Part shown: positions 41,501 through 48,661 of the stretch, in pieces
Position numbering within the stretch: position 1 is the first letter of the stretch
Layout: each line of letters opens with the position of its first letter
From: Spirochaetia bacterium
Lineage (GTDB): Bacteria > Spirochaetota > Spirochaetia > SZUA-6 > Bin103
Length of the DNA stretch: 64,000 nucleotides
Direction of reading: 5' to 3'
NCBI GenBank assembly: GCA_965208575.1
Contig: CBDBOV010000006.1
Coordinates: 1,120,001 to 1,184,000 of the forward strand
The notes under the pieces: generated by a model
What the model saw: the letters and a program-made list of their open reading frames with translations, nothing else
Told to the model about the DNA's origin: nothing
Database searches by the model: none
Position numbers and translations under genes: made by a program

Positions 41501-41516
41501 TGCAAAAACCGGGCCA
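41501..41516 (-). promoter_or_regulatory. Sigma54 (-24/-12) promoter of the giant adhesin
   Basis: Minus strand TGGCCCGGTTTTTGCA has exact GG-N10-GC spacing; an AT-rich IHF-like tract (41527-41560) lies immediately upstream. Confidence 0.75.
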
Positions 41517-41687
41517 GGCTTCTGCCAATCAGGTCAACTTGTTTTTCAGAAAAGAATTAGAGTGACCTTGAGCCGTTCTCTCCGGGCCGCGGACGAGTGG
41601 CGCATCTCGCCACTCAAGCCCGGCCCATGCCGGTCTGGTGCGAATAACTCGTGGCGGGTGAGTTGGTTATGAGCAGGGGCCACGAGC

Positions 41688-41723
41688 TGTCGCGATGTGC
41701 GTCACGAGACGCAATCTGCAACA
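41688..41723. promoter_or_regulatory. Tandem 17-bp imperfect palindromes, candidate enhancer (UAS)
   Basis: TGTCGCGATGTGCGTCA and AGACGCAATCTGCAACA; a matching site lies at 43983. Confidence 0.55.
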
Positions 41724-41814
41724 GTCAGGCGGCGACGGCGGGCCGGGCTGCGAACCGACGCATCCGGCGGCGACCGCGACGCGGACTCGGCTCGCCGGGG
41801 CGAGCGGATCCGAT

Positions 41815-44267: not shown

Positions 44268-44287
44268 CGGGCGGCGCGCTTCGCCCC

Positions 44288-46669
44288 ATGGCTACCGGCA
44301 ACGACATTCCGCCATCCGTGCGCATGCCCGGTAGAGGGCGGCCGTCGCCTGGCGCCCACGCGGATCCGCCCGTGCCGGGCGCCCGGCCGCCGGTGCACGC
44401 GGCGCCCGGGCCGCGCATCCTGATCGCGGCCGAAGATGCCGAGATTGCCCGCCTCGAGGCGCTGCTCATCGAGTTCGGCTGCGTGGTGACGGCCGCGGCG
44501 CGCTCGGGCCGCGAGGCGCTGGCCGCGCTGCAGGCGCGCGCCGACGGCGACCCGCCGCCCGCCGAACTGGCGTTGATCGATCCGGCGCTCGGCGGCGAGG
44601 TTTCGGGCGTTGCCGCCGCCCGCCGGCTGCGCCGCTTCGGCATCCCGGTGATCTACGTCACCGACGGCGACCTGCCGGCGCGCACCGCCCGCGCCGCCCG
44701 CGCCGCCGAACCGGCCGCCTACGTGCCGCGCCCGGTGGCGCCGTGGCACCTGCGTGCGACCATCGACACCGCCCTGGCGCAGCACCGCCGCGAAACCAAG
44801 CTGGCCGAGCGTGCGCGCCTGCTCGCCCGCGAACGCGGTGCGCTCCGGCGGCGCGTCACGACGCTCCAGGATCGGAGCGCGCACACCGAGGCCGAGTTGC
44901 GCGACCAGGTGGAGGCATTCAGGAGCCAGTCCACGCTGCTGCGCGCGGTGGTGGACAGCATGGGCGATGGACTGATCGTGGCCGACCGCGAAGGCAGGTA
45001 CCTGCTCACCAATCCGGAGATGGAGCGCCTGGTCGGCATGTACCGGCCCGGCGCCGACCTGTCGCGGCGGTCGCAGACCTACGGCCTGTACTATCCCGAC
45101 GGGAAGACCCTGATTCCCTCGGAGCGGCTGCCGCTGACGCGCGCCCTGAGCCACGGCGAGTCGACGGACAACTTCGACGTGTTGATCCGCAATGCCGGAC
45201 ACCCGAACGGGATCCGGGTGAGCATCAACGGGCGGCCGCTGTACGACGCGGACGGCGCCTTGCAGGGTGGCGTGATCGTGTTCCGCGACGTGACCCGCAT
45301 CAGGGAAACGGAGCGCGAGGTGGTAGAGTCCGCGCACCGCATGGCGGAGCAGAGCCGCGCCATGCAGACCGTGGTCGACAGCATCAGCGACGGCGTGGTG
45401 GCCGCCGATACGGCCGGCAGGCTCACCCTGTTCAACCCGAGCGCGGAACGCATTCTGGGTCTGGGAAAGATCGATACGCCGCCCGAGCGCCGGGCCGAAC
45501 GGTACGGCGTCTACTACCCTGATGGGGCGACGCCGGTGGCGGCGGACGATCTGCCGCTGACGCGCGCCACGCGCGGCGAGTCTTCGGACGGCGAGGAGTT
45601 CTTCGTACGCAATCCGCGCGTTCCGGACGGCGTCTTCGTCAGCGTCAGCGGCCGGCCGCTGCGCGACGGCGCCGGCGCGCTGGTCGGCGGCGTGGTGGTG
45701 TTGCGCGACGTGACCGAGCAGGTCCGGGCGCACCAGACGCTGATGCAGGCGTTCGCGCAGGGGCGGCTGGAAGTGGTCGACACCATCGTCCACAACATCG
45801 GCAACGCGATCAACAGCGTGGCGATCGGCGTCGGTACCATCCAGCACGAGTTGGAACGGAACCGCGAACTGCGCCGCTTCCAGGCGCTCGCGCACGCTCT
45901 CGAGCAGCACCGCGACGACTGGCTCGCATACCTGCGGACCGATCCGCAGGGGCGGCAGGTGGTGCCGTTCATCCTCGCGCTCGCCACCGACTTCGAGGCC
46001 CGCAATCGGCGCTTGACCGACACGGTGGAGCGCGTGCGCGGCCGCGTCGCGCACATCGTCGACCTGATCAGAACGCAGAAGTCGTTCGACCGCCAGAGCA
46101 TGACGAGCAAGCTGATCGACCTGCGCCAGTCGATCGTCGATGCGACCAAGGTCCTGGCCGAGTCGTGCGCGGTGCGCGGCATCGACGTGGAGATCGACTG
46201 CGCGCACGCTCCCCGTGAATTGTGGATCCAGGAGAACAGGTTCCACCAGATGCTCGTCAACCTGATGAAGAACGCCATCGAAGCGATCGACGCGCTGTCC
46301 GCGGCCGGCCGCGGCGCGGCGGGGCGCGACCGGCCCCGCATCCGCATCGCCTGCTACCCGCGGGACGAATTCCTGGTGATCGACGTGATCGACAACGGGA
46401 TCGGCATGGGCGAACAGCGCCACCGGCTGATCTTTACCGCCGGCTACACCACCAAGGAGAGCGGCAGCGGACTCGGGCTGCACTCGGCGGCCAACTTCGT
46501 GATCGGCTCCGGCGGCCGCATCCAGGCAATGAGCGACGGCCACGGGACGGGAACCACGATCCGGGTAATGCTGCGCCGGACGGCGCCGTCCGCACGGCGG
46601 GCCGCGGCGAAACAGGCCGCGGCTTCCGCGCCGACAGGCCACTGGTTGGCGCCCTCGTCCTCCGGTTGA
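44288..46669 (+). CDS. Cytoplasmic hybrid histidine kinase (atypical REC-PAS-PAS-HK)
   Basis: Degenerate receiver; two PAS domains (DSMGDGLIVAD, DSISDGVVAAD); HNIGNAINS, NLMKNAIEA, DNGIG and GSGLGL. Confidence 0.9.
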   Translation: MATGNDIPPSVRMPGRGRPSPGAHADPPVPGARPPVHAAPGPRILIAAEDAEIARLEALLIEFGCVVTAAARSGREALAALQARADGDPPPAELALIDPALGGEVSGVAAARRLRRFGIPVIYVTDGDLPARTARAARAAEPAAYVPRPVAPWHLRATIDTALAQHRRETKLAERARLLARERGALRRRVTTLQDRSAHTEAELRDQVEAFRSQSTLLRAVVDSMGDGLIVADREGRYLLTNPEMERLVGMYRPGADLSRRSQTYGLYYPDGKTLIPSERLPLTRALSHGESTDNFDVLIRNAGHPNGIRVSINGRPLYDADGALQGGVIVFRDVTRIRETEREVVESAHRMAEQSRAMQTVVDSISDGVVAADTAGRLTLFNPSAERILGLGKIDTPPERRAERYGVYYPDGATPVAADDLPLTRATRGESSDGEEFFVRNPRVPDGVFVSVSGRPLRDGAGALVGGVVVLRDVTEQVRAHQTLMQAFAQGRLEVVDTIVHNIGNAINSVAIGVGTIQHELERNRELRRFQALAHALEQHRDDWLAYLRTDPQGRQVVPFILALATDFEARNRRLTDTVERVRGRVAHIVDLIRTQKSFDRQSMTSKLIDLRQSIVDATKVLAESCAVRGIDVEIDCAHAPRELWIQENRFHQMLVNLMKNAIEAIDALSAAGRGAAGRDRPRIRIACYPRDEFLVIDVIDNGIGMGEQRHRLIFTAGYTTKESGSGLGLHSAANFVIGSGGRIQAMSDGHGTGTTIRVMLRRTAPSARRAAAKQAAASAPTGHWLAPSSSG

Positions 46670-46678
46670 CCCGCCGAT

Positions 46679-48661
46679 TCACTCGCCGCAGTCGGCGGCG
46701 CCGGCGGCGTCCGCGGTCAGCCCGTACTTGTTCAGCTTGCGGTGCAGCGTCGCGCGATTGATGCTCAGGGCGCGCGCCGCGCGCGTCACGTTGCCGCCGG
46801 CCGCGGCCATCGCCTGCTCCACCGCCCGGCGCTCCACTTCCGCCAGCGGCGCCACCTGCGCCAGCGCGCCGGGTTCTCCGCCCGCCGCGCGCTCCGGCGG
46901 CAGCGCCTCCAGGCCCGGCGGCAGATCCGCCGCCTCGATCACGCCGCCGCCCGCCATCGTCGCGGCGCGCTCGATCACCCCCTGCAGCTCGCGCACGTTG
47001 CCCGGCCAGTCGTGCGCCAGCAGCAGCCGCAGCGCGCCCGGACTGATGCTCTTCACCGCCTCCCCGGCGCGCCCGGCGTACTGCTCCAGGCAATGGTCGA
47101 CCAGTTGCGGCACGTCCTCGCGCCGCTCCCGCAGCGGCGGCAGCTCGATCGGGAACACCGCCAGGCGGTAGTACAGGTCGGCGCGAAACGCCCCCGATCG
47201 CAGCGCCGCGTCCAGGTCCCGGTTGGTCGCCGCGATCACCTGCACGTCCACCGGGATCATCGCCGTGCCGCCGACCCGCTGCAACTCGCGCTCCTGCAGC
47301 ACGCGCAGCAGCCGCGCCTGCAGCTCCGGCCTCATGTCCGCGATCTCGTCCAGCAGGATCGTGCCCCCGTGGGCGCGTTCGAAGCACCCCCGCCGCACCC
47401 GCGTCGCCCCCGTGAACGCACCCTGCTCGTGCCCGAACAGCTCGCTCTCGATCAGCCCCTCCGGCACCGCCGCGCAGTTGACCGCCAGGAACGGTCCCGT
47501 GCCGCGGCGCCCGTTGGCGTGCAGCGCGCGCGCCACCAACTCCTTGCCGGTGCCGCTCTCGCCCCGGATCAGCACCGTCACGTCGCCCGCCGCCGCCCGC
47601 TTCATCAGCCGGTACACCCGCTGCATCGCCGCGCTCGTTCCCACCATGCCGGCTATCGGCGCCGGGCTCTCCAGCGCCGCCCGCAAGTCGCGCACCTCGG
47701 CCTGCATCCGCTCGATCTCCACCTCGCGCGACAGGTCGCGGTACAGGTACAGGTCGCCGATCACGCCGCCCCCGTCGTCGTGCACCGGCCGGCGCAGCCG
47801 GTAGTACAGCGGACCGGCGGCCGCCGCCGTGCGCTCCGCCTGCCGCAACGGTTCCACCAGGTCGCCGCCCGCCTCCACCGTGACCCGCCTCCCGGCATCG
47901 CGCAGCACCCGCATCCGCTTGTCCCAGAGCGTACTCAGGGCGTACGCGGACATCGTCTTCAGTTCCTCCTCCGAGGCGCTCAGCAGGTCCTCGTAACTGC
48001 GATTGGCGAACACCACCCGCTGCGCGTCGTCGTACACGGCGAGCGCCTCTCCGATGGAGTCGAGCACCGCCGTCAGCCGCCGATTGGTAACCGTCAACTC
48101 GCGCCGCCGCAACTCCAGTTCCCGCTCCAGGTTCCACTTCTCGACCAGCGCCACGGTGATCTGCTGCACCTCCTCGCGCGCGAACGGCTTCCTGACGTAC
48201 AGCAGCTTGTGCAGCAGCTCCATGTCCTCCACGATTTCCGCCAGCGACGCGTCGGTGTACGCCGTCATCAGCACGATCTCGATGGCGCGGTCGATGCCGC
48301 GTATCCTGCGCACCGTGTCCACCCCGTCGATGCCGGGCGGCATCCGGATGTCGATGTACGCCGCCGCGATCGGGGCCCCGTCGCGCGCTGCCCGCCGCAC
48401 CACCTCGCACGCCTCTTCGCCGCCCATCGCGTGCAGCAGCTCGAACTCCGGCAGGTGGTGATCCGCCTCCTCGCCGCCCAGGAACGATGCCGCGAGGTCG
48501 TCCGCCGCCGCCCGCCGCGGCCTCAGCATCTCCTCGAAGTCGTCGTGGATGTCCCGCTGATCGTCGACGATCAGCACCCTGGTGTTCGCCGGTTCCTTGC
48601 GTGCCGCTCCGCTACCCGATCGTGTTCCGCCCGCCGTTGCCGTGCCCATGCTTGGATGCAC
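46679..48661 (-). CDS. Sigma54-dependent response regulator, copy 2
   Basis: Same architecture as copy 1; AAA+ region is near-identical at the DNA level. Confidence 0.93.

Follow-up and report, generated by a model that had tools for sequence, protein, structure and literature searches.

The gene of a giant surface protein in a Spirochaetia bacterium is, on a reading that we hold with moderate confidence, controlled by an NtrC-type two-component sigma-54 enhancer module in which one activator (copy 2) starts the system, its paralogue (copy 1) boosts its own synthesis, and the adhesin is driven by both. The locus lies in a stretch of 64,000 nucleotides from GenBank assembly GCA_965208575.1 (contig CBDBOV010000006.1, positions 1,120,001 to 1,184,000 of the forward strand; G000:C6:1120001-1184000 in our numbering), which we call the window and by which positions are given; the genome, G000, has 6.5 Mb and 67% GC. 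The form of the module, an ordinary bacterial switch type, is unusually clear and conserved. Giant adhesins are among the costliest of bacterial proteins, and how uncultured bacteria decide on making them is little known. This locus gives a complete hypothesis at the level of base pairs, with a kinase, two activators, two promoters and six candidate binding sites, and its parts could be tried out in E. coli, with no need for a culture of the organism itself.

Two sigma-54 promoters with a common enhancer layout

A first-pass annotation of this DNA had placed -24/-12 promoters upstream of the adhesin gene and of copy 1, and both are borne out (Table 1). Sites were scored as GG-N10-GC plus 8 further consensus positions (x/8). 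For the string TGGC-N7-TTGC the window has 8 matches where 2.55 are expected, a count that none of 100 shuffles attained, and the genome holds five 8/8 sites, the copy-1 promoter among them, against 0.5 in shuffles, a ten-fold enrichment. The adhesin site is one of 9 promoter-like 7/8 sites in the genome, and it is credible because of its position and its conservation in two orthologous loci rather than its motif score. The predicted transcription starts are at about 41490 for the adhesin and 43878 for copy 1. A "genic" class for the copy-1 promoter, which lies within a long stop-to-stop frame upstream of the kinase start, was rejected, and a third TGGCAC-type site at 53417 (+) was dropped as GC-rich and apparently coding sequence.

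Upstream of each promoter lie three dyads with a core of 15 bp, scored as matches to a relaxed 12-position pattern (x/12) and located by their centres in bp counted from the T of TGGC. The palindromes first reported here are present as exact matches at 41689, 41708 and 43984, but the starts then quoted included one flanking base, the core is 15 rather than 17 bp, and each promoter has three dyads instead of two at one and one at the other. The adhesin and copy-1 promoter regions align almost without gaps over 260 bp with their elements in register. The offset from doublet to promoter is 189 bp at the adhesin and 190 bp at copy 1, and a TAATT-containing patch at the copy-1 promoter takes the position equivalent to the AT-rich patch of the adhesin.

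Table 1. Features of the locus, in window coordinates
Feature	Position	Strand	Score or basis
Giant surface protein gene	16539..41303	-	Open reading frame, Pfam, start aligned with orthologues
Adhesin sigma-54 promoter, TGGCCCGGTTTTTGCA	41516..41501	-	7/8; kept in G006 and G021 orthologous upstream regions
AT-rich patch between adhesin proximal dyad and promoter	41531..41560	-	Possible HU/IHF-type bending site
Proximal dyad, adhesin enhancer, GTGGCGAGATGCGCC	41599..41613	.	Centre -90, 10/12
Distal dyad doublet, adhesin enhancer, 4-bp spacer	41689..41722	.	Centres -199 and -180, both 12/12
Activator copy 1, 673 residues, REC-PAS-AAA+(GAFTGA)-HTH_8	41815..43836	-	Pfam, alignment
Copy-1 sigma-54 promoter, TGGCACGGCTGTTGCT	43904..43889	-	8/8
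Proximal dyad, copy-1 enhancer, GTCGCATGATGCGTC	43984..43998	.	Centre -87, 12/12
Distal dyad doublet, copy-1 enhancer, 4-bp spacer	44078..44111	.	Centres -200 (10/12) and -181 (11/12)
Sensor histidine kinase, 793 residues, cytoplasmic type	44288..46669	+	Pfam
Activator copy 2, about 656 residues (660 if the start is GTG 48661)	46679..48649	-	Pfam, alignment
AT-rich upstream region of copy 2	48650..48811	-	No sigma-54 promoter; closely conserved with G006 counterpart

The arrangement and conservation of the dyads, not the single motif, are what goes beyond chance. Doublets with dyads 19 bp apart and scores summing to 21/24 or more were sought across the genome, together with a sigma-54-like site of at least 6/8 at a distance of 150-260 bp. 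Nine doublets were found, three of them at this locus, against 0-5 in five shuffles. A sigma-54-like site accompanies only two of the nine, namely those of the adhesin and copy-1 promoters, and the five shuffles contain no such combination. The adhesin's own distal doublet, two 15-bp dyads of 12/12 with a 4-bp spacer, ranks first among the mere 2 doublets of its kind that the genome holds, where 5 shuffles give 0. Within the thresholds used, the confinement of the combination to these two promoters supports the earlier description of the switch as "dedicated" to the adhesin.

The upstream region of copy 2 is of another kind. Its best sigma-54-like site scores 4/8, in keeping with the first-pass annotation, which had seen no such promoter there, and nothing above 4/8 was found either for copy 2 or for the genes at the copy-2 position in three related genomes (G006, G021 and G017). 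Four of the five regulator starts tested among copy 2 and its counterparts are without dyads, the exception being G017_B with one 11/12 dyad at -170. The same enhancer at copy 1 and the adhesin, the same HTH in both activators and the lack of a sigma-54 promoter at copy 2 together suggest the wiring of a coherent feed-forward loop with positive autoregulation.

The assembly itself was checked against contigs of two runs, X1 and X2, which may be the sample from which the genome was assembled. These span both promoter regions with 0 differences, covering 41088-41855, 41000-42140, 43750-44296 and 48569-48895, likewise without differences.

Two paralogous activators and a kinase

In Pfam terms both activators consist of a receiver (REC), a PAS domain, a sigma-54 AAA+ domain, an AAA lid and a helix-turn-helix (HTH) domain of type HTH_8. 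The AAA+ match (PF00158) scores 231 bits in each copy, with GAFTGA and GESGTGKE visible in both; the Response_reg match reaches 33.0 and 32.4 bits, above the cut-off of 30.2, and HTH_8 scores 56 and 52 bits. The receivers have DD near the start and then YIDIRMP, LMTAY and RKPF, to which we presumptively assign residue roles, including that of the phospho-acceptor aspartate, by eye from known receiver motifs. With a receiver, a GAFTGA-bearing AAA+ domain, a Fis-type HTH and sigma-54 with a -24/-12 target promoter, they have the features of NtrC-family response regulators. No NCBIfam equivalog, ZraR and others included, scores over its cut-off, the best being AtoC (396 against 714 bits), then NtrC (381 against 558.6) and PrsR (PEP-CTERM; 352 against 502.6), and the activators are therefore placed in an unnamed subfamily.

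The two proteins are 87% identical overall and 98% identical in the AAA+ domain, and their differences are almost confined to the first half of PAS and to the linker between AAA+ and HTH. In this linker, between the AAA+ lid and the HTH, copy 1 carries a repeat insertion of 28 residues rich in Pro, Glu and Arg (window 42035-42124) that copy 2 is without. Over residues 615-665 the HTH domains are 90% identical, and alignment confirms the earlier observation that both copies keep GAFTGA and the recognition helix RATLHRKL; the two HTH_8 domains should recognise one 15-bp dyad, roughly GWYGCR-N3-YGCRWC. Copy 1 begins at a GTG preceded by GGGAGGA. The genome contains one rpoN gene, one gene of the HU/IHF family and 7 strong sigma-54 activators.

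The giant open reading frame (16539..41489) and both activator genes are on the minus strand. The kinase has a weak REC, two PAS domains and HATPase_c. A 451-bp intergenic region separates it from copy 1, which is transcribed divergently, and it converges on copy 2, the two stops being 9 bp apart. This orientation rules out an operon of kinase and copy 2, and the kinase gene forms an operon with neither copy. The minus-strand frame across the kinase stretch has no Pfam match. In the intergenic region of kinase and copy 1 there is also a weak sigma-54-like site (CGGCGCGGCGCTTGCC, 44227-44242, +, 5/8) some 45 bp ahead of the kinase start, at a distance of 116-149 bp from the distal doublet of copy 1. 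The enhancer between the two genes could in principle act both ways, with the proviso that a 5/8 score is common in GC-rich DNA.

Conservation of the three-dyad layout

The layout recurs in related genomes. The adhesin N-termini of G006 and G021 are 76% and 72% identical to that of G000, and alignment of the three adhesin upstream regions shows five conserved blocks: the sigma-54 promoter, the dyad doublet, the proximal dyad, a block GAGTTATYCG and the AT-rich patch before the promoter. Dyad centres are at -195, -176 and, for the proximal dyad, -88 (11/12) in G006 and at -201, -182 and -89 (12/12) in G021. The GAGTTATYCG block, at about 41640-41650 of the window (alignment columns 395-410) between the doublet and the proximal dyad, occurs in all three adhesin regions, and the copy-1 promoter has an AT-rich patch in its place; it is possibly a second bending or protein-binding site.

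Two distant loci, L028 and L030, whose metagenome-assembled genomes are titled Candidatus Latescibacterota (the relatives G009, G012 and G021 are titled Spirochaetia), encode a regulator of about 51% identity. Their giant Big_12-repeat open reading frames have promoters with dyads at -202 and -183 (L028) or -201 and -182 (L030), in both cases with no proximal dyad of at least 11/12, and the promoters of their kinase-regulator operons have dyads at -221 and -202 and a proximal one at -84. In L028 a run of repeated ACATTTGCA-like units stands between the sigma-54 promoter of the kinase operon and the start codon.

Taken together, the doublet is present at 8 of the 14 sigma-54-like promoters examined near homologous regulators, these 8 being drawn from 5 genomes. 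Seven of the eight have distal doublets of at least 11/12, at -195 to -221 and -176 to -202, the eighth (copy 1) scoring 11+10, and six have proximal dyads at -84 to -90. The first HTH helix has one sequence wherever the dyads are present and differs in G022 and G019, where they are missing. In this small sample, the correspondence of helix and dyad fits the activators as the candidate dyad-binding proteins. Homologous kinase-regulator pairs adjoin sigma-54 promoters and giant Ig-repeat open reading frames in G022, G019 and L028. With the conserved layout of sites as a query, other metagenomes could be searched for this regulon. None of 300 other genomes sampled in the phylum gave a full-length regulator, and among 200 sampled in the class the one genome besides G000 that did so was G006 of family f1, so that the module is patchy in its own phylum.

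The giant adhesin and neighbouring genes

Counted from ATG 41303, the surface protein has about 8,254 residues. The GTG at 41489 cannot be its start, because the predicted transcription start at about 41490 coincides with it, and the real start is likely to be ATG 41303, which aligns with the starts of the orthologues and opens a signal-peptide-like stretch. What follows this ATG is a hydrophobic N-terminus of signal-peptide type with MLALVAWLAVAAAHA/QTP, the stretch ending AHA/QTP. The predicted leader would be about 186 nt long, and an Rfam scan of 41000-49000 gave nothing relevant, with no riboswitch in this leader. In Pfam the protein has dozens of overlapping Cadherin_5, Big_9 and Cadherin_4 repeats of Ig type, with fn3, Calx-beta and PKD-like domains besides. 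The protein is probably anchored in the outer membrane, possibly by a C-terminal barrel like that of type Va autotransporters: the last 350 residues match PF03797 (Autotransporter) with 20.9 bits, below the cut-off of 26 (E 3.3e-4), and the C-terminus, encoded in the region 16539-17600, ends ...RLRY with an aromatic final residue. An autotransporter of 8,250 residues would be exceptionally large.

Two genes lie just downstream of the adhesin gene: one (14165-15349, -) encodes a membrane protein with LytTR at its C-terminus, the other (15503-16555, +) a small protein with HATPase_c. A G017 gene located between the kinase and regulator A has a product 59% identical to the LytTR protein, and G021 has a related, apparently damaged copy between kinase and adhesin; judged by these loci, the LytTR gene has been conserved beside the module. 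Directly upstream of copy 2 is a fatty-acid desaturase gene (48812-49834, -), and near the locus, at 9230-11800 (-), is a fused AMP-binding/carrier-protein/acyltransferase gene that is possibly lipid- or lipopeptide-related. Outside the window, another 8/8 sigma-54 site, G000:C5:680359 (-), is found immediately downstream of another activator gene, whose AAA+ match is at C5:680673-681476, and may be a second activator-then-target arrangement. A further locus, L017 (G017:C2:290000-309900), packs three regulator copies and two kinases into 12 kb, and no giant open reading frame, sigma-54 promoter of at least 7/8 or dyad doublet was found in it.

History of the paralogues

The duplicated pair makes gene conversion and sensor divergence readable directly in DNA. 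In the AAA+ coding sequence, copies 1 and 2 agree at 760 of 766 positions (99.2%), and their identities to the regulator G006_C180 are 95.2% and 94.9%, respectively. The first half of PAS gives another picture, with 71.6% identity between copies 1 and 2, 88.4% between copy 2 and G006_C180, and 70.5% between copy 1 and G006_C180. G006_C180 is at the copy-2 position, convergent with a kinase, and has the PAS type of copy 2, while the PAS of copy 1 is nearer to the type of G021 and G017_A (76-78%). Immediately upstream of the adhesin gene of G006, contig C34 breaks off within the 3' end of a regulator gene, and G006 therefore also has two copies; as it has in addition kept the PAS type of copy 2, the duplication predates the split of G000 and G006. 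The pattern indicates that gene conversion has since, to all appearance, homogenised everything but the sensor half of PAS and the linker.

Three forms of circuit can be distinguished. G021 has a single regulator without a sigma-54 promoter and an adhesin with the full enhancer; in L028 and L030 the entire kinase-regulator operon stands behind a sigma-54 promoter with a doublet; and G000 and G006 combine the G021 form with that of L028 and L030. A wider scheme, which we put forward only tentatively and think more apt to be wrong than right, is that the fixed ruler of three dyads (about -200/-181/-88) would be the assembly platform of a subfamily of REC-PAS sigma-54 activators that travels with giant adhesin genes between distant lineages (one Spirochaetia family and the genomes titled Latescibacterota). 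In the lineage of G000, duplication would have divided an ancestral self-activating operon into a starter that does not depend on sigma-54 and an amplifier that does, with gene conversion keeping the ATPase and DNA-binding parts interchangeable and selection keeping two PAS sensors. If true, this would amount to a two-input, all-or-none switch for a very costly protein.

The proposed switch and its alternatives

In the mechanism that we favour, the kinase would phosphorylate the receiver domains of both activators, and copy 2, expressed from a sigma-54-independent promoter, would supply activator at the outset. With a dimer on each of the three dyads, one hexamer would be nucleated, loop across the AT-rich patch and open the promoter; copy 1 would amplify its own synthesis, both copies would drive the adhesin, and two PAS types would probably bring different signals to one enhancer. 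Copy 1 is very probably activated both by itself and by copy 2, because there is a conserved enhancer at its promoter and the HTH is nearly the same in both proteins. The interpretation offered by the first-pass annotation is supported in part; its linear order, from the kinase to copy 2 and on to copy 1, is an inference. With the same HTH in both, direct action of copy 2 on the adhesin enhancer is to be expected as well, and since divergence is limited to the PAS half and the linker and the AAA+ domains are nearly identical, an integration of two signals with mixed hexamers is at least as likely as a relay. Bistability, for which positive feedback and cooperative assembly would be the ingredients, is speculation.

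Several observations weigh against the mechanism that we favour. A scan of the genome of the kind first suggested, for the palindrome together with -24/-12, finds the combination of doublet and promoter specific but the palindrome alone not enriched: the dyad pattern of the first-pass annotation has 20 strand matches against 17-30 in shuffles, the refined pattern is likewise not enriched genome-wide, and with one mismatch the window holds 16 matches where 21.7 are expected, so that scans for single sites cannot define a regulon. The dyad pattern was, moreover, defined partly from the very sites later counted, and two of the six dyads in the window score 10/12 only. The 7/8 class of sigma-54 sites numbers 46 in the genome against 38 in shuffles, so the adhesin motif alone is not significant, and a sigma-70 consensus scan of 41200-49000 returned 0 promoter-like sites, none for copy 2. 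The receiver match of the kinase scores under the Pfam cut-off. Among other genomes, six of the 14 sigma-54-like promoters near homologous regulators are without a dyad of at least 11/12 (one each in L032, G022 and L015 and three in G019), and the dyad-positive promoters represent two independent clades only. G017, finally, has the two-copy arrangement and yet no adhesin and no sigma-54 promoter, and its copies A and B are apparently without an HTH.

The alternative that holds up best does away with the hierarchy. The paralogues would be present together and form mixed hexamers, the PAS domains would act as a gate for two signals, and the copy-1 promoter would only tune the ratio of subunits. 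We consider this possible, though hardly probable as a replacement for the starter-and-amplifier reading, with which it overlaps and which it does not exclude. Identities of 98% in protein and 99.2% in DNA make mixed AAA+ rings hard to avoid, the limitation of divergence to the first PAS half and the linker and the keeping of the copy-2 PAS type in G006 speak for two sensors, and there are precedents in RedR1/RedR2, near-identical activators that are reported to favour hetero-oligomers (PMC10084136), and in HrpR/HrpS, reported to be active in the form of a hetero-hexamer (PMC3105312). What it leaves aside is that the two genes differ in their kinds of promoter, which is just the asymmetry that a starter and an amplifier need, and that G021 functions with one regulator.

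The pairing of one HTH with two different sensors would also suit a brake, in which an inactive copy occupies the common dyads or poisons mixed hexamers; both inputs would then have to be permissive for the adhesin to be made. This is unlikely, as both copies retain GAFTGA, the Walker motifs and the context of the receiver aspartate, and neither is marked as degenerate. Still less probable is that the dyads are bound by another protein, such as the neighbouring LytTR membrane protein or a repressor, with the activators binding elsewhere or acting from solution. The LytTR gene is indeed conserved beside the module, but direct repeats are the usual targets of LytTR proteins, and dyads with a GCA-N3-TGC core 80-220 bp upstream of -24 are typical for activators with a Fis-type HTH; in addition, the dyads come and go in step with the type of the first HTH helix (missing in G022 and G019) and are kept at L028 and L030, where a LytTR gene was not looked for. 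That other promoters serve these genes and the motifs match by chance in GC-rich DNA we regard as very improbable, since, near to genome background as the 7/8 class and the dyad pattern each are, the elements are conserved in register across three orthologous loci and in the same layout in distant metagenome-assembled genomes, their combination is unique in the genome and occurs in no shuffle, and the 8/8 class is ten-fold enriched.

Comparison with known systems

Among the closest known models for the module proposed here is the enteric NtrB/NtrC system with glnAp2, in which an activator with receiver, AAA+ (GAFTGA) and Fis-type HTH acts from dyads upstream of a -24/-12 promoter. In glnALG, a weak sigma-54-independent basal promoter and sigma-54 self-amplification are combined in one operon. 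The present locus resembles this system in the receiver/AAA+/HTH build of its activators, in the upstream dyads and in the predicted self-amplification by way of sigma-54. It differs in that the basal and the amplified routes are divided between two paralogous genes, that a PAS domain stands between receiver and AAA+, that there are three dyads at about -200/-181/-88 and that the target is a giant surface protein; the NCBIfam NtrC and AtoC models, moreover, match the activators only below their cut-offs.

A search of the literature joining Latescibacter and sigma-54 found no paper, and among the papers listed by a search on sigma-54 enhancer-binding proteins with adhesin autoregulation no such module is described, as far as titles and the openings of abstracts go. 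Single traits of it have parallels elsewhere. At norVW of E. coli, NorR uses three enhancer sites at one sigma-54 promoter, all of them reported to be required, but with another motif and spacing, a nitric-oxide-sensing GAF domain and a single activator gene (PMC2831303). In Myxococcus xanthus, the sigma-54 activator Nla28 directly regulates the genes of other sigma-54 activators in a cascade, reported as part of a network of many distinct activators for development (PMC9765219), whereas here there are a paralogous pair of two genes, one common type of enhancer and, to judge by the scan, two target promoters.

Further parallels are pairs of duplicated activators. HrpR and HrpS of Pseudomonas syringae are duplicated and specialised and cooperate at one sigma-54 promoter; they are reported to be encoded in tandem in one operon, to have no sensory domains and to be strictly co-dependent (PMC3105312). 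The pair described here is not of that type, having no tandem operon: its genes are separated by a kinase gene on the opposite strand, REC and PAS are present, and the kinds of promoter differ. RedR1 and RedR2 of Aromatoleum anaerobium are near-identical activators that act on common sigma-54 promoters and that are reported to have subtle differences in their N-terminal sensory part, including PAS, and different control mechanisms (PMC10084136). They are like the present pair in being near-identical activators that differ in the sensory part. Unlike it, they have GAF-PAS sensors without a receiver or kinase and serve a catabolic pathway, and their abstract mentions no sigma-54-dependent expression of one copy (PMC10084136). 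What the present analysis adds to the first-pass annotation is the set of three dyads at each promoter, their layout across genomes, the uniqueness of the arrangement within the genome, the orientation of the kinase and the history of the paralogues.

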